This document shows positions 11,334-45,569 of a stretch of 55,587 nucleotides of DNA, piece after piece. Within the stretch, counting starts at the first letter, position 1. Every line of letters starts with the position of its first letter. The notes beneath the pieces are model-generated. The model was not told the DNA's origin. It did no database searches and saw only the letters and a program-made list of their open reading frames with translations. This DNA comes from an uncultured Ruminococcus sp. GTDB taxonomy: Bacteria; Bacillota; Clostridia; Oscillospirales; CAG-272. A program made the position numbers and the translations under genes. The stretch lies in NCBI GenBank assembly GCA_902779285.1, contig CACZAZ010000002.1:1-55587 (forward strand), written 5' to 3'.

Positions 11334-11712
11334 TTCGTTTCCGGTCTGCGCCGGTTCCGTTTTTTGGAGACCGCCGGAGCAGGATGCAGAATCCCCGTTC
11401 TCGACCCGAAGCTATATCTACATACTGCGAGGGTTAGCGAGCAAAAACGCCCCAGTGGGGCGTTTTTACGAAGTGGTGTCGCCCCAAGCAAGGAGTGTGG
11501 GGTGTGCGACACGGCGCGCGCCCCGGACGACTATGCGACGGCGACTGGGCAACGAGAACGGGGAGAGGAAACGAATACTAAAAAAGGAGAAAACCGCCCA
11601 CCCGGGCGGTTTTCCACCTTAATTGCGTTCAACTATGCGAGGGAAATGCACAGAGAAAAATGCTTTAACGAATAATCAACGATCCCTTCGTTTCCGGTCT
11701 GCGCCGGTTCCG
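11334..11712. repeat. 26-bp direct repeats enclosing a 327-bp structured segment with a 12-bp inverted repeat
   Basis: TTCGTTTCCGGTCTGCGCCGGTTCCG at 11334-11359 and 11687-11712; TCCCCGTTCTCG (11392-11403) / CGAGAACGGGGA (11553-11564); internal hairpins. Confidence 0.8.
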
Positions 11713-29633: not shown

Positions 29634-29775
29634 TCATTAGCGAGCGCAGCGAGCTACATCATTAACGAGCAGAGCGAGTTACATCATCAGCCCGCTTGCG
29701 GGCGACATCATTAGCGAAGCGCAGCGAGCTACATCATTGACCTCGTGCGACGCGGAGCAAAGCAAGAGGTCACAT
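29634..29775. repeat. Array of five hairpins separated by CATCAT linkers
   Basis: TAGC..GCTA, TAAC..GTTA, GCCCGC-TT-GCGGGC, TAGC..GCTA, TGACCTC..GAGGTCA. Confidence 0.7.
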
Positions 29776-29958: not shown

Positions 29959-30047
29959 TGGTGCCGATGACCGGGTTCGAACCGGTACGGGAGTTAAGTC
30001 CCATCGGATTTTAAGTCCGAGGCGTCTGCCAGTTTCGCCACATCGGC
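29959..30047 (-). tRNA. tRNA-Leu (anticodon TAA)
   Basis: GCCGATG/CATCGGC acceptor stem, CT-TAA-AA anticodon loop, long variable arm, GGTTCGAACC T loop, encoded CCA; promoter TTGACT-17-TATACT (30064-30092). Confidence 0.97.
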
Positions 30048-36239: not shown

Positions 36240-36995
36240 ATGAAAAACAGAATCAAAGCAGACTGGGCGGATACGCGGCTTCTGTTCCGCTGTATCCCCG
36301 CGACCGTCGCCACGCTCTTCGCCGTGTCGGTCGTGATGATGAATCTTTTGGCGAACAAGACGATCTACCAGTCGGCATACCTTGCGCTCGACGGCGGGAT
36401 CCTTGTGTCCTGGCTGTCGTTTTTGTGTATGGACGTCGTGACGAAGGCGTTCGGGCCGAAGGCGGCGACCAAACTCTCGGTGTTCGCGATCGGCGTCAAC
36501 CTGATCGTCTGCTTCTTCTTTTATATCGTCAGCGTCATCCCGACGAAGGACGATTTCTCCGCGTTCAATCAGACCGTCGGCGGCACCTGGTTCATCCTGC
36601 TTTCCAGCACGGTCGCGTTTCTCTTTTCCGCTTTCATCAACAACTTTATGAACTGGGGGATCGGGCGGGCGTTCAAGCGGAATCCCGACGGCAAACTCGC
36701 CTTCTTTACCCGGTGCTACGCCTCGACCTTTCTCGGGCAGTTCTTCGACAATTTCATCTTTGCGATCCTGACCTTCACGGTCTTCGCCCCGATCTTCTGG
36801 GACGGCTTCTCCTGGACGATCCTGCAATGCTTCACCTGTTCGCTGCTCGGGGCGGGAGCGGAACTCTTCTGCGAGGTGATCTTCTCCCCGCTCGGCTATA
36901 AGATCGTGCGCCGCTGGGAGCGCGAGGGGATCGCGGATCCGTACCTCAAACGAACGTCCGCCGAAAACAGCGAAAGCGAGGGGGTTTTGGTATGA
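36240..36995 (+). CDS. VUT/YhhQ family queuosine-precursor transporter
   Basis: MNLLANK, FLCMDVVTKAFGPKAA, LSSTVAFL, TFLGQFFDNFIF; multi-TM. Confidence 0.85.
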   Translation: MKNRIKADWADTRLLFRCIPATVATLFAVSVVMMNLLANKTIYQSAYLALDGGILVSWLSFLCMDVVTKAFGPKAATKLSVFAIGVNLIVCFFFYIVSVIPTKDDFSAFNQTVGGTWFILLSSTVAFLFSAFINNFMNWGIGRAFKRNPDGKLAFFTRCYASTFLGQFFDNFIFAILTFTVFAPIFWDGFSWTILQCFTCSLLGAGAELFCEVIFSPLGYKIVRRWEREGIADPYLKRTSAENSESEGVLV

Positions 36996-37651
36996 ATATC
37001 GTCATAACGGGTTCGTCCCGCGGGATCGGGAAGGCGGTCGCGGAGCGGTTCCTCTCACTCGGGCATACGGTATTCGGGATCGATCTATTGCCCGCTTCGA
37101 TCCGGAACGAACGCTATTTACACACCGTCGCAGACGTGCGCGACGCCGCCTCGCTGCCCGATATTCCCTCCGTCGATATCCTCTTTCTCAACGCGGGGAC
37201 GCAGAACGGGGAGAACGATATCGAAACCAATCTTATCGGCGCGATGAACGCAGCCGAAAAATTCTGTGCGTCGCCCGCCCTGCGCTCGGTGCTTTTCAAC
37301 GCCTCGGCGTCCGCCGTCACCGGGCAGGAGTTCCCCGCCTACGCCGCGTCGAAAGCGGGGCTCGTCGGGTATATGAAGAACCTCGCGATCAAACTCGCCC
37401 CGCGCGGCGTGACGGTCAACGCGATCTCCCCCGGCGGGGTCTTGACCGAGTCAAACGACCCCGTGACGAGCGATCCCGCCCTCTGGAAAAAGATCATGGA
37501 CGTCACGCCCCTCGGAAAATGGGCAACGGTCGACGAGATCGCGGACTGGGTGATCTTCCTGACGCTCACCAACCGCTCCATGTCGGGGCAGAATCTGCTG
37601 ATCGACAACGGGGAGAAGGATCTCTATCCCACCTTCGTTTGGAAAGACTGA
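36992..37651 (+). CDS. Classical short-chain dehydrogenase/reductase
   Basis: VITGSSRGIG, NAG, ASAS, YAASK, VNAISPG; ATGA overlap with the VUT gene. Confidence 0.9.
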   Translation: MNIVITGSSRGIGKAVAERFLSLGHTVFGIDLLPASIRNERYLHTVADVRDAASLPDIPSVDILFLNAGTQNGENDIETNLIGAMNAAEKFCASPALRSVLFNASASAVTGQEFPAYAASKAGLVGYMKNLAIKLAPRGVTVNAISPGGVLTESNDPVTSDPALWKKIMDVTPLGKWATVDEIADWVIFLTLTNRSMSGQNLLIDNGEKDLYPTFVWKD

Positions 37652-37692
37652 AACAAAAACGCGGCGCGCCGAACGGCGCGCCGCAAGTTTTC

Positions 37693-37789
37693 AGGGTCGA
37701 TTACGGGGCGTTATTAAGGGTCGATCGCGGGGGCGTTTTCAGGGTCGATCACGGGGCGTTTTTAAGGGTCGATCACGGGGTGGCGTTTC
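37693..37789. repeat. Four tandem 24-bp repeats
   Basis: AGGGTCGAT at 37693, 37717, 37741, 37765; consensus AGGGTCGATCACGGGGCGTTTTTA. Confidence 0.9.
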
Positions 37790-38121: not shown

Positions 38122-38922
38122 TTACTTGCCGAGCGAAACGATCCGCTGCAAACGCTCGAAGGCGATCTTGAGATACTCGCGGTCGGGGGTGTCGGCGTAT
38201 TTGCCCTCGCGGAAAAGTTCGAGGGTCAGACTGCCCGCGTAGTCGGTCTTCCGCAGCCGCGTCATAATATCCGCGTAGTCGATATTGCCGTCAAAGGGCA
38301 TCAGGTGCGCGTCGGGGTCGGCGTAATAGTCGTTGTGGTCGCGCCCGAAATTGTCGTGGATGTGCGTGACCAGCAGGCGGTCGCCGTAGAAATCGAGGTA
38401 TTTCACCGTCTCGGTATAGCAATGCTCGTGTCCCCAGTCGTAGCAGAAGCCCACCCACGGATTCTGCTCGTATTTATCCATCAGAACCGCGAGATGCCCG
38501 AGCCGCCGCAGGTTTTCAAAAGCGAGTTTGACCTTCTTTTTGCCGGCGTAATCGACCAGAGCGTCGAAGCGTTCGTAGCCGATCCGCGAGATCTCGGGCG
38601 GGAACCAGCCGGACGAGACGTGCGTGACGATCGCAGGGATGCCCGCGCCCGCCGCCGCGTCGACCGAAAGGTAGATCCCGTCGAGCAGCGGTTTGCACGC
38701 GTCGCTTTCCAGCCAGATATCGTTGATCCCTCTCCACGGCGCGTGGAGCGAATCGCAGACGAGACCGAGTTTGTCGCACTTTTCACGGATCGCAAGGACG
38801 GTCTTCGGATCGTTATCCTCTGAGAAGACCGACTCGAATCCCGCGTCGCGGATCAGTTCGAGCGCGTCGATCTCCTTGACCCCCGAAAGGCAGGCAGCCG
38901 CGATCCCGAGTTTGTTTTTCAT
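38122..38922 (-). CDS. Sugar phosphate isomerase/epimerase (xylose isomerase-like TIM barrel)
   Basis: SLHAP, LAFENL, GFCYDWGHE, THIHDN, HLMPFDG, LTLE. Confidence 0.85.
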   Translation of the reverse strand: MKNKLGIAAACLSGVKEIDALELIRDAGFESVFSEDNDPKTVLAIREKCDKLGLVCDSLHAPWRGINDIWLESDACKPLLDGIYLSVDAAAGAGIPAIVTHVSSGWFPPEISRIGYERFDALVDYAGKKKVKLAFENLRRLGHLAVLMDKYEQNPWVGFCYDWGHEHCYTETVKYLDFYGDRLLVTHIHDNFGRDHNDYYADPDAHLMPFDGNIDYADIMTRLRKTDYAGSLTLELFREGKYADTPDREYLKIAFERLQRIVSLGK

Positions 38923-39118
38923 TTCGTTTTTCCTCTCTTTCGTCGTAGTCACGGCGTTTTCTTTTCGCTCCTATTATACCATTTTGCCGTGGAAAGTCAA
39001 GCGGAACGGGGTCGAAAAAACGAAACCGCACGCGGTTTTACGGCGCGTTTTCGGAAAATACTTGCGTTCACCCCCGGGACGTGGTATAATGTGGTGAAAA
39101 AGCAAAACGAGGTCCGTT

Positions 39119-39964
39119 ATGCAAAGAAGAGAAGACGAAGATATTTACGACCGCGCGCTCCGGGTCCTCCGGGGGAGCTTGATCCTGCAACTGACGATCT
39201 TTTTGATCATGGCCGCGCTCGGGTCGTTCATGATCTATCAGTCCCGCAAGTACGCGCCGATCGAACGGGAGGGCGCCGAAAGTTACGTCGGCTCGTTTGA
39301 GGAATACCGGAGCGAAGACCGCGTCCTCGCGTTTTCGGACGGCGCCGAATACCGGCTCTTCTCGGTCACCGCTACGGACGAACTCGAAACCGCCCTGAAC
39401 GGTTTGGAAAAAGGGACGGAACTGCGGCTTCTCGTCAATCCGAAGATCGACGACGTGATCGAGATACGGACCGCAACCGAGTATCTGTTGGACTTCGACG
39501 GATCCCAAGCCGCGATCTACGCCGACAGAAAGGATCTCTTCTGGATCGGCGTGATGTTTATCGGGCTGCCGCTGATCCTCCTGCTCCTACTTCAAATCGA
39601 ACGGATCGGCAAGAAAAAGGAGAAAAAGCGTCAACGCGTTCGCGACGGCAGGGCGAAAAAACAGAAGTTCCGGGGCAAAGGCACGCCGCCGCTGCGCGAC
39701 GCGGATATGACCAAACGCGGTCGGATCCTGCTCGAAGCGACCAAGGACAAATACGAGATCGTCTACCGCCGCCTGAAAAAGGTGAACGAGCTGATCGTCA
39801 ACGGGCGGGTCTACGACGAGATGAAGGCGGTGCTGGAGGTCGAACACACCCTCTCCGCCGAGATCGACGGTCACAAGATCGAGGCGGGATTACAGGAGAT
39901 CGGCACGATCAGTTTCATCCGCTTCGACGGGGAGACGCTGGCGGAGAAACGGCGCGTCATCTGA
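39119..39964 (+). CDS. Hypothetical membrane protein (2 TM plus soluble domains)
   Basis: Long ORF with GAGG RBS and TTGCGT-17-TATAAT promoter; no recognised family. Confidence 0.7.
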   Translation: MQRREDEDIYDRALRVLRGSLILQLTIFLIMAALGSFMIYQSRKYAPIEREGAESYVGSFEEYRSEDRVLAFSDGAEYRLFSVTATDELETALNGLEKGTELRLLVNPKIDDVIEIRTATEYLLDFDGSQAAIYADRKDLFWIGVMFIGLPLILLLLLQIERIGKKKEKKRQRVRDGRAKKQKFRGKGTPPLRDADMTKRGRILLEATKDKYEIVYRRLKKVNELIVNGRVYDEMKAVLEVEHTLSAEIDGHKIEAGLQEIGTISFIRFDGETLAEKRRVI

Positions 39965-40011
39965 TCCCCTTTCCGCAACAAAACAGAAACGTCCGCACGG
40001 TTTCGTGCGGA

Positions 40012-40209
40012 CGCGGTTTTTTTCTGCGGTTTTTCGCGGTTTTTGCGGTTTTTGCGGTTTTTCTGCGGTTTTTGCGGTTTTTCGCGGTTTCTTCTACGGT
40101 TTTTTCTGCGGTTTTTCGCGGTTTTTTCTGCGGTTTTTCTGCTGTTTTTCTGCGGTTTTTTCTGCGGTTTTTCGCGGTTTTCGCGGTTTTCGCGGTTTTC
40201 GCGGTTTTT
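40012..40209. repeat. 19-unit GCGG-T(4-7) array, mean period 10.4 bp
   Basis: T-tract starts at 40017, 30, 40, 49, 58, 69, 78, 88, 100, 112, 122, 134, 145, 156, 168, 178, 187, 196, 205; follows terminator-like hairpin GTCCGCACG/CGTGCGGAC. Confidence 0.9.
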
Positions 40210-41653
40210 ATTCGGTCGCCAAGCCCGCCGCAAGGCGGACGCAGCGGTAGCCGCCGTCGTAGTATCCCTGCCCCTTCAGTTCGGTGATCCGATCGCAGAA
40301 GTGCGGCAGGATCTCGCGGTCGGTGAGCAGGCGGTCGAGCGCCCGACGGAGATCGGGAAGTTCGGCGTACTCTCCCGTGGCGTCCCCGAACTCTCTGCCG
40401 TGGATCGCGCCGTAGACCTCGTGTCCCCCGATATGCTTCATAAAGAGTTTGGGAATCGGGTAGTAGGCGAGTTCGCTCGGCTTGGTGACCAAAAGATCGG
40501 ACACCGGCATCAGCAGATTGGTCGCGTAGACCGCCGAGAAAATATCGTCGTCGCAGATCAGCGTGACGCCCCGCGCCTCTCCTTCCCGGATCTCGGACGC
40601 GTAGCGCTTCAGCCCCTCGAAGTCGTTTCGGAAACAGCGCAGCCCGCCGAGCGCCCCGATCCGGGCTTTCAAGCGTTCGTACACCCCGGCGTGGTCGCCC
40701 GCGTTGAGGAACAGCGCCGCCTCGCCCCGTTCGACGTAGGGCGTCAGGTGTTCGATCATCCCGAGGAACAGGTCTCCCCCGGCGCCGGCACCCCCGACGT
40801 TGAGCAGGATCCGTATGGGTCCGCCCGACGCGATCCGCTCTTTGCGGAGGCGGTTATCCTCCTCGAGATCGCGGAGCAGTTCGTGGTCGACGTAGCAGCC
40901 GACCGCGTAAAGGTCGCTCTCCGGGATCCCTTTCAGGGGGGGTTTGGCGAATCCCTCGAGCGTTTTGTACCCGAGATAAGCGAACGGGGTCTGCACGGTA
41001 TGGATCGCGCCCTCGGACAGATGGAGTCCCATCGGCCAGTTGTCGGGGATCGCGTTGACGACGTGCGTCATACCGGCGTGGACCGCCGCCTGGCTCGGCC
41101 AAACGTGGGTGGCGATATAGGGCGTATCCTTGTCGATATGCGAAAAGAGCGGGACCAGCAGTTCGCTGTTTTTCTGATCCTTCGCGTTGTAGGTGATCTT
41201 CTTGAACCCCTCGGAGTTGAGCGGCTCCCAGATCAGCCGGTTGAACAGCCGCGATCTCTGCGAGATGCGGGAGGCGAGCGAGTACAGATCGTTCTGCTCG
41301 CGGATCATCTTCGACCCGGTCGCGTCGAACGAAGCGAGGTCGAGCCAATACGGGGTAAAGCCGAGCGCTCTCGCGCAGGACGCCATCGCGATCGAGATGC
41401 GGTAATGCCCGAAGCCCATCCGGATATTCCCGACGATCAGGGGCTTGCCGTCCATCGTCTCCGTCCCGTCTCCCGAGACGATATTCCGCGCCCCGATGTG
41501 CGAAAGCTGCCCGATCGGGGGGAACGCGAAGCGGTAGTCGGTCTTACTGTCGTCGCCGTATTTTTTCAGATATTTCGCCTTGGACTTTTCGGCTTTCTTC
41601 ACGGTTTTCCGGTCGATCGGATTGCCGAAAACGGTTTTCGTCCTGTCGGTCAT
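40208..41653 (-). CDS. GT-B-fold glycosyltransferase-like protein (MGDG-synthase/UgtP-like remote homolog)
   Basis: MGFGHYRI (cf. GxGH), IATHVW, LLNVGGAG, DLLVTKPSE, GGHE; ATGA overlap with GH36. Confidence 0.6.
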   Translation of the reverse strand: MTDRTKTVFGNPIDRKTVKKAEKSKAKYLKKYGDDSKTDYRFAFPPIGQLSHIGARNIVSGDGTETMDGKPLIVGNIRMGFGHYRISIAMASCARALGFTPYWLDLASFDATGSKMIREQNDLYSLASRISQRSRLFNRLIWEPLNSEGFKKITYNAKDQKNSELLVPLFSHIDKDTPYIATHVWPSQAAVHAGMTHVVNAIPDNWPMGLHLSEGAIHTVQTPFAYLGYKTLEGFAKPPLKGIPESDLYAVGCYVDHELLRDLEEDNRLRKERIASGGPIRILLNVGGAGAGGDLFLGMIEHLTPYVERGEAALFLNAGDHAGVYERLKARIGALGGLRCFRNDFEGLKRYASEIREGEARGVTLICDDDIFSAVYATNLLMPVSDLLVTKPSELAYYPIPKLFMKHIGGHEVYGAIHGREFGDATGEYAELPDLRRALDRLLTDREILPHFCDRITELKGQGYYDGGYRCVRLAAGLATE

Positions 41654-45428: not shown

Positions 45429-45521
45429 TTGCGTTTCTCCTTTCGTATTCCGCGGCCGTCCGCCCGTTTTTGCGGTTTTTTCGTGCGATCCGCGGTTTTT
45501 GTGACCTTTTCGCTATCAAAC

Positions 45522-45569
45522 TGATAGATAGTCTATCATTATTATAGCAAGACTTCTATCATCTGTCAA
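45522..45569 (-). promoter_or_regulatory. Promoter and palindromic operator of the TetR operon
   Basis: Minus strand TTGACA (45564-45569)-17-TATAAT (45541-45546); TGATAGA-N3-TCTATCA at 45522-45538; extra TCTATCA half-site in the spacer. Confidence 0.8.

Follow-up and report, generated by a model that had tools for sequence, protein, structure and literature searches.

Bacterial intergenic minisatellites, or VNTR loci, are exemplified by the mycobacterial MIRU-VNTR. Bidirectional intrinsic terminators carry an A-tract as the 5' shoulder and a U-tract as the 3' tail of their hairpin. On the scale of whole sequences, A-tracts with a periodicity of 10-11 bp have been described in prokaryotic genomes (PMC3431218, PMC4060949), and the latter source credits Bolshoy and co-workers with finding a surplus of bent DNA near prokaryotic promoters and terminators. 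At the sabA gene of Helicobacter pylori, a T/A-tract adjoining the -35 element acts as a 'rheostat' that tunes the binding of RNA polymerase (PMC4081817), and for the primary binding sites of Rho a [(YC)N9-13]n spacing has been proposed as a model (PMC6144790).

The locus we compare with these systems lies in the genome of an uncultured Clostridia MAG of rumen type (G000; 2.0 Mb, 137 contigs), within a stretch of 55,587 nucleotides called the window here. Positions 40017-40209 of its + strand form an imperfect tandem array of 19 units, in which T4-7 is followed by GCGG, CGCGG or CTGCGG. A parse of the 193-bp sequence gave 18 runs of at least four T (lengths 4-7), with starts from 40017 to 40205, and one degenerate unit, TTTCTTCTACGG at 40088, which brings the total to 19. 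The units are 9-13 bp long with a mean of 10.4 bp (188 bp between the first and the last start, divided by 18). Position, unit number, mean and range thus agree with the original prediction, which had also described the plus strand as almost free of A; the composition of 40017-40209 is T106 G52 C34 A1, a single A in 193 nt. On the - strand, the array reads (A4-7 CCGC[G/AG])n.

Tandem Repeats Finder describes the array with a period of 11, 18.5 copies and a score of 220, and together with the unit parse this establishes head-to-tail copies of a short unit, as in a minisatellite. Some adjoining units are identical, including four T4CGCGG in succession, and a 20-bp block of two units, CTGCGGTTTTTCGCGGTTTT, is present three times. 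The expectation for the two-unit pattern in shuffles of the window is 0.01, and 40017-40209 is the sole array of this word in G000. Two other tandem repeats of the window have different units: one at 37687-37780, with a 24-bp unit in four copies (or 48 bp in two), GTTTTAAGGGTCGATCACGGGGC, lies just downstream of a short-chain dehydrogenase gene (36992-37651), and a 25-bp repeat at 29634-29738 (4.2 copies, 71% matches) has a tRNA gene (29962-30047, - strand) at a distance of about 220 bp.

The array follows the last gene of a four-gene sugar operon on the - strand, which encodes a TetR regulator, an MFS_2 transporter, a melibiase-like hydrolase and a 481-aa protein with the domains DUF6937 and DUF6938 (40208-41653, - strand; DUF6937/8 in the following). 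Since the TAA stop codon of the latter (complement of 40208-40210) belongs to the last T-run, the array begins at the stop codon. At its other end is a bidirectional intrinsic-terminator hairpin of 10-11 bp, CGTCCGCACG-GTTT-CGTGCGGACG (39989-40014), which a consensus scan flagged on both strands. Its - strand side runs straight into TTTCTGTTTTG, and on the + strand side it is followed by CGG and T7, the first unit of the array. The array thus takes up the entire space from the DUF6937/8 stop codon to the hairpin, and the 3'UTR of the operon reads UAA-(A4-7CCGC[G/AG])n-hairpin-UUUCUGUUUUG; a placement in the 3' UTR had already been suggested in the original prediction and is supported.

This position also makes the array non-coding. 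Neither its 9-13-bp units nor a 56-bp indel (see below) are multiples of three, and open reading frames run across it because each strand lacks A or T, so that no stop codons are possible. Given the varying unit lengths, the 56-bp indel and frames that are open merely for want of A or T, we rejected a coding repeat. We also rejected a phase-variable contingency locus (SSR), since the array is located past a stop codon and before a terminator, not in an ORF or a promoter spacer.

Beyond the hairpin, G000 has a convergent gene for a 281-aa protein (39119-39964, + strand) with no match in Pfam or NCBIfam, and beyond this gene the promoter of an AP_endonuc_2/xylose-isomerase-like gene (38973-39000, - strand; TTGACT-16-TG-TATAAT). 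The 281-aa gene and its own promoter amount to an insertion of about 1 kb between the hairpin and the AP_endonuc_2 promoter. It is missing from G294, G300, G346, G414 and the metagenome contig L061, the array-bearing species with this flank assembled. There, hairpin and promoter are adjacent, and a strong promoter, TTGACT-16-TGnTATAAT, located about 25-45 bp past the hairpin drives the same-strand AP_endonuc_2-type gene. The hairpin-adjacent promoter of these relatives is taken as the ancestral arrangement, into which the module has been inserted in G000. The module (39001-39988) is shared with a yak-rumen MAG (L008, 80% aa identity), in which the 281-aa gene has its closest named relative; the contig of this MAG stops 8 nt past the gene.

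Look-ups with exact proteins for alleles of the same species returned one further full contig and one partial contig. The full one, ENA contig ERZ27280307, shows 0 mismatches to the window in 3400 + 2306 flanking bases and has 14 units. It lacks exactly 56 bp (5 units) between two copies of CTGCGGTTTTTCGCGGTTTT, which form a 20-bp direct repeat (40106-40125 and 40162-40181, + strand) bounding the segment 40106-40181. The partial one, Logan contig ERR3224600, matches the window at 100% identity as far as 40198 (18 units) and ends within the array. With 14 units between identical flanks, the second assembly leaves the exact copy number uncertain; the difference between 19 and 14 may reflect heterogeneity in the population or a collapse by the assembler.

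That the array as such is an artefact, a misassembled or inflated low-complexity stretch, could be argued from these two assemblies, which differ precisely between the direct repeats, and from the contigs of G420 and Logan ERR3224600, both of which terminate inside the array. Yet eight independent assemblies or contigs, which represent six or more species-level genomes, have an array at the same site, and the Logan contig confirms 18 units without a mismatch. We regard an artefact as extremely improbable; the assembled sequences leave no doubt that there is an array, and the doubt is limited to its exact copy number.

For relatives of this locus, we first searched 150 other genomes of the genus for the pattern and then all 212 genomes at the protein level. 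The DUF6937/8 gene occurs in six other species with 86-93% aa identity, and an array was present at the same site in 7/7 orthologous loci at this level of identity (G000, G294, G300, G346, G414, G420 and L061). We counted 9-10 units in G294, 7-8 in G346, 6-7 in G300, 6 in G414 and 6 in L061 (91% identity); G420 has at least 4, its contig starting inside the array. Copy number at one locus therefore differs among related genomes, as in minisatellites, and ranges from 6 to 19 units over the seven species-level loci. In every allele, array units are the only spacer: they begin at the stop codon (AATAAAACCGC...) and continue up to the hairpin (...AAAAACCGC-GTCC...). Where the hairpins at this place vary among species, the changes are compensatory, as in GTCCGGACGG/CCGTCCGGAC versus GTCCGGGTGG/CCACCCGGAC, and the hairpins act like real structures.

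The array is absent from 73 metagenome orthologues with 54-74% aa identity and from G027 (76% nucleotide identity), and in many array-less orthologues the site holds a plain terminator, or the next gene follows at once. DNA matches in G006 and G002 proved to be low-complexity look-alikes and were discarded, one probably lying within a coding T-rich stretch and the other in an unrelated intergenic region. Presence in 7/7 close loci and in none of about 74 distant orthologues marks the array, on sequence comparison, as a clade-specific feature that arose once and was then inherited.

How the array changed after its origin can be read from the alleles. Whereas the third-codon identity of the adjacent gene across the clade is 69-90%, a manual count on the orthologous arrays found a perfect core of GCGG with at least four T in about 85% or more of the units. 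G414 and L061, the two most similar alleles, with 90% identity in the third positions of codons, differ in T-run lengths and one 1-nt indel only. Differences between units are mostly indels in T-runs and collapsed units, and the odd spacers seen in relatives, such as CGGTGCGG, GCGATGCGGTCTGCGG, CGGGTGCGG and GCGATGCGGTCTGCGGTGCG, are readable as units with collapsed T-runs (1-3 T in CGGTGCGG, CGGGTGCGG and GCGATGCGGTCTGCGGTGCG). For the core to stay pure while the gene diverges, either continual regeneration by duplication or purifying selection is needed, and the data do not separate the two. Regeneration by duplication is usual for minisatellites.

Overall, we consider it probable that the array is a non-coding minisatellite which was born by slippage at the shoulder of a terminator, its curvature (see below) being a by-product. 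The ancestral order was probably a TAA stop codon, AAACCGC, the hairpin and a T-run. Slipped-strand duplication would then have copied the shoulder word once (an A-run with CCGC on the mRNA strand, GCGG with a T-run on the + strand), and turnover since would have consisted of gain and loss of units and changes in T-run length, with expansion to about 19 units in the lineage of this strain. The array would be carried passively as the 3'UTR of the DUF6937/8 operon, ending at the hairpin terminator, and no sequence-specific function would be needed. We infer this slippage origin and near-neutrality from several features. In each allele the array fills the space between stop codon and hairpin exactly, and its occurrence is restricted to one clade. 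The series of unit numbers (19 or 14, 9-10, 7-8, 6-7, 6, 6) and the slippage-type differences fit such a history, and the purity of the core would fit continual regeneration. In G000, the array has persisted although the next promoter was displaced by about 1 kb, and in the relatives its A-tracts stand in no fixed helical register to that promoter. The lack of an Rfam match (see below) and the reading frames, which A-free and T-free strands would explain, are also consistent with a minisatellite.

The shoulder word itself is widespread in the genome. No other word ends terminator stems in G000 as often as GCGGTTTT, or AAAACCGC, of which there are 262 copies, a large share of them paired in hairpins; a word so frequent provides a ready substrate for shoulder duplication, and its recurrence also keeps a functional reading alive. 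Short arrays occur at two unrelated gene ends, one of 5 units in G300:C62 (L032 1500-1552) and one of 3 units in G346:C2 (L034 1500-1530), both in the order stop codon, short spacer, (A5-7CCGC)n, hairpin, T-run. That the same word formed arrays between stop codon and terminator hairpin at these ends would again agree with expansion from a terminator shoulder.

Two isolated GCGGTTTT words are located in the leader of the TetR operon (45472-45500, + strand). Both copies exist as originally predicted, but the proposal that the motif brackets the operon fails, as they are missing from the same leader in four relatives, where the promoter and the TetR-type palindromes are conserved; the leader words are probably coincidental. 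In the promoter region of this operon (45500-45560), palindromes of the type TATCA/TGATAGA overlap a TTGACA...TATAAT promoter, and the four relatives conserve this region, unlike the downstream leader.

Several observations count against a minisatellite. Third codon positions have diverged by 10-31%, yet all 7/7 loci have kept the array, with at least 6 units where its assembly is complete. The core of GCGG and T-run is much purer than the neighbouring spacer, and purifying selection would give the same picture. The word is found beside three different hairpins whose stems are without it, which purely local slippage would explain incompletely. Finally, the pattern is nearly confined to the genus: three consecutive GCGGTTTT words spaced by 0-4 nt were found in 4/151 genomes of the genus, including G000, and in 1/400 genomes elsewhere in the class, there with a different 12-bp unit. 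These observations bear on the possibility that (A4-7CCGC)n is a lineage-specific cis element 5' of intrinsic terminators, where a putative protein, bound to the RNA of the 3'UTR or to the curved duplex, would set termination efficiency or mRNA stability. Such an element would explain the array in 7/7 loci, the pure core against diverging flanks and the word beside three unrelated hairpins. We nevertheless hold it to be quite unlikely.

To assess the DNA shape of the array, we applied four dinucleotide wedge models (Bolshoy-Trifonov, De Santis, AA-wedge and Calladine-Drew) and traced the resulting path of the helix; the parameters and hence the values are approximate. The ratio of end-to-end distance to contour length (d/L) was 0.59-0.87 for the array, which places it under the 1st percentile in 4/4 models, the genome mean being 0.95-0.99. 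As controls, a sequence with a 15-bp period stayed straight and an ideally phased synthetic sequence bent more than the array. In a scan of 198,094 windows of the genome (203-bp loci), the array ranked 2nd for curvature with the Trifonov and 3rd with the De Santis model. The A/T runs of at least 4 nt recur near 10-11 bp, as in phased A-tracts, with a mean spacing of 10.4 bp, a coherence of 0.62 at 10.5 bp and a best coherence of 0.63 at 10.55 bp. The strong intrinsic curvature that is predicted would result from every unit having an A-tract and being close to one helical turn in length. For the G000 allele, the strong bend of the original prediction is thus upheld by modelling. Other top-curved 203-bp loci in G000 (C6:58681, C60:8671, C35:21501) are A/T-tract-rich promoter regions, divergent ones among them.

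The relatives do not share this regularity. The mean A-tract spacing of 10.4 bp in G000 compares with about 10 bp in the 14-unit form, 11.5 bp in G294, about 11.8 bp in G346, 10.2 bp in G414 and 9.6 bp in L061, and spacing is irregular in G300. Over eight alleles, coherence at 10.5 bp ranges from 0.32 to 0.96, the seven complete arrays spanning 0.32-0.86 and the four-tract fragment of G420 giving 0.96. Phasing is destroyed in relatives because T-runs inside the units collapse. Conservation of the period in relatives, which had been put forward as a check on the bend, therefore fails, with means from 9.6 to about 12 bp. In five relatives, the A-tract nearest to the -35 element lies at a distance of 57.5, 61.5, 66, 86.5 and 66 bp from it, which modulo 10.5 leaves 5.0, 9.0, 3.0, 2.5 and 3.0. 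With no conserved helical register between the A-tracts and the next promoter, we rejected a promoter-phased bend.

These results weigh on the idea of an architectural DNA element, in which a static bend under selection would recruit a nucleoid-associated protein, organise the boundary between the convergent genes or, ancestrally, stimulate the next promoter. The extreme rank of the predicted curvature, in the company of promoter regions, is consistent with such a role, as are the position of the array upstream of the strong TTGACT-16-TGnTATAAT promoter in five relatives and the reported excess of bent DNA around prokaryotic promoters and terminators, for which we rely on the summary in PMC4060949 referred to above. 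However, a period that drifts over the range given, coherence as low as 0.32-0.38 in some alleles and collapsed T-runs within the arrays are hard to reconcile with selection for shape. In addition, the nearest A-tract is separated from the -35 element by 57-87 bp and by the terminator hairpin, and occurs there in every rotational phase; in G000 the promoter is about 1 kb distant, yet the array is longest there; and the curvature is itself a prediction from approximate wedge parameters. An architectural element, which the original prediction had inferred, is thus unsupported, and we judge it to be improbable. According to the models, curvature stands for the G000 allele, and the inference that the shape itself is conserved fails.

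The array could also act at the level of RNA, as a cis element (A4-7CCGC)n in the 3'UTR that serves as an unstructured spacer holding the terminating ribosome off the hairpin, as a platform for an RNA-binding protein or ribonuclease that determines mRNA stability, or as a helper in termination. At all three loci of the genus, the arrays are oriented with their A-rich strand as RNA between the stop codon and a canonical hairpin with U-run, and the core word is retained in all orthologues. The - strand RNA has little predicted structure inside the array, the clear structure being the terminator hairpin, and its CC dimers recur every 9-13 nt, similar to the [(YC)N9-13]n spacing proposed for Rho (PMC6144790). 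Against this, unit number and spacing vary freely over a threefold range, about 74 more distant orthologues do without the tract, and neither the corresponding proteins nor an Rfam family could be detected. Searches for the RNA-binding domain of Rho (PF07497), in which the controls were positive, gave no match in G000 (95% complete) and none in five relatives with an array (G294, G300, G346, G414, G420), and Hfq (PF17209) was not found in G000. We therefore rejected a Rho rut site, in spite of a spacing that resembles the published model, as well as an Hfq module of A-rich tract and U-tail. In searches with Rfam covariance models, region 38900-40400 had 0 matches at E <= 1, and the sole match in the whole window at the gathering score was one tRNA, by which we rejected a known ncRNA. 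All in all, an RNA-level element seems unlikely to us.

Intrinsic terminators may be the only means of termination in this lineage, considering the six genomes searched for Rho, whose assemblies are 81-97% complete. Elsewhere in the window, 11586-11625 is one of at least five paralogous non-coding stretches (the others being G000 C4:14025, C4:14280, C16:18753 and C45:11871), which have about 150 nt in common and centre on a terminator-like hairpin, GGAGAAAACCGCC...GGCGGTTTTC, followed by CCTTAAT. The copy at 11586-11625 has no Rfam match at the gathering score; the stretches may belong to one leader-RNA family or be copies of a small repeat element.

On the opposite strand, the array might constitute a series of weak tandem terminators or an insulator, which would assist the main terminator in keeping transcripts of the convergent 281-aa gene from running on into the antisense of the operon. 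Adjoining CGCGG/CTGCGG words can pair into hairpins of 5-6 bp, each followed by a U-run, at 12 sites on the + strand within the array. The consensus scan found 16 sites of hairpin plus T-run in a 1.5-kb region, where 3.7 were expected from shuffles, and the + strand RNA folds better than shuffles (z = -4.45). However, the stems are very short and the scan permits G-T pairs, while the main hairpin with its T7 already appears adequate. Moreover, the relatives with an assembled flank have no convergent gene, so that the arrangement predates any such need. We consider backup termination very improbable.

If the array is a minisatellite, as we favour, then phased A-tracts that rank among the most curved DNA of a genome can arise merely by the expansion of a repeated terminator shoulder word. 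The orthologues, in which the helical phase is not preserved, advise caution against reading function from curvature alone. At the same time, the alleles offer a natural length series of 6-19 units for the effects of A-rich 3'UTR spacers or of bent DNA on termination. Should (A4-7CCGC)n be a cis element after all, it would represent an undescribed terminator-associated recognition element in poorly known Clostridia of gut and rumen.

Among the known systems, Rho utilisation sites (PMC6144790) resemble the array in that its RNA has more C than G, is largely free of structure and shows CC dimers at intervals of 9-13 nt ahead of a transcript end; the difference is that no Rho RNA-binding domain was detected in G000 and five relatives, and that an intrinsic terminator directly follows. 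With the sabA tract, the array has in common a slippage-prone intergenic T-run repeat whose length alters the local shape of the DNA. Unlike that tract, it is located after a stop codon and before a terminator, with the next promoter at 57-87 bp (relatives) or about 1 kb (G000) and in no conserved register. The likeness to bidirectional terminators is found in the hairpin at 39989-40014, which stands between an A-run and a T-run and was flagged on both strands, but here the A-run shoulder is repeated 6-19 times, not once.

Kinetoplast-type bent A-tract DNA is similar to the array in having A/T runs of 4-7 nt about every helical turn, here over about 190 bp and with a predicted curvature among the highest of the genome. 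The phasing of the array is looser, with 9-13 bp per unit and the coherence of 0.62 at 10.5 bp given above, and is not conserved in orthologues, and its curvature is a predicted one. Compared to bacterial intergenic VNTRs, the array has far shorter units (9-13 bp) of irregular length, it is a single locus instead of a dispersed family, the shoulder word of the terminator itself can be recognised in the unit, and variation within the species is one possible reading of the assemblies with 14 and 19 units. What the array shares with VNTRs are head-to-tail non-coding units at the end of an operon, a copy number that varies between lineages, and gain and loss of units. The closest kinds are therefore bacterial intergenic VNTRs and the phased A-tract bent DNA of prokaryotic genomes (PMC3431218, PMC4060949).
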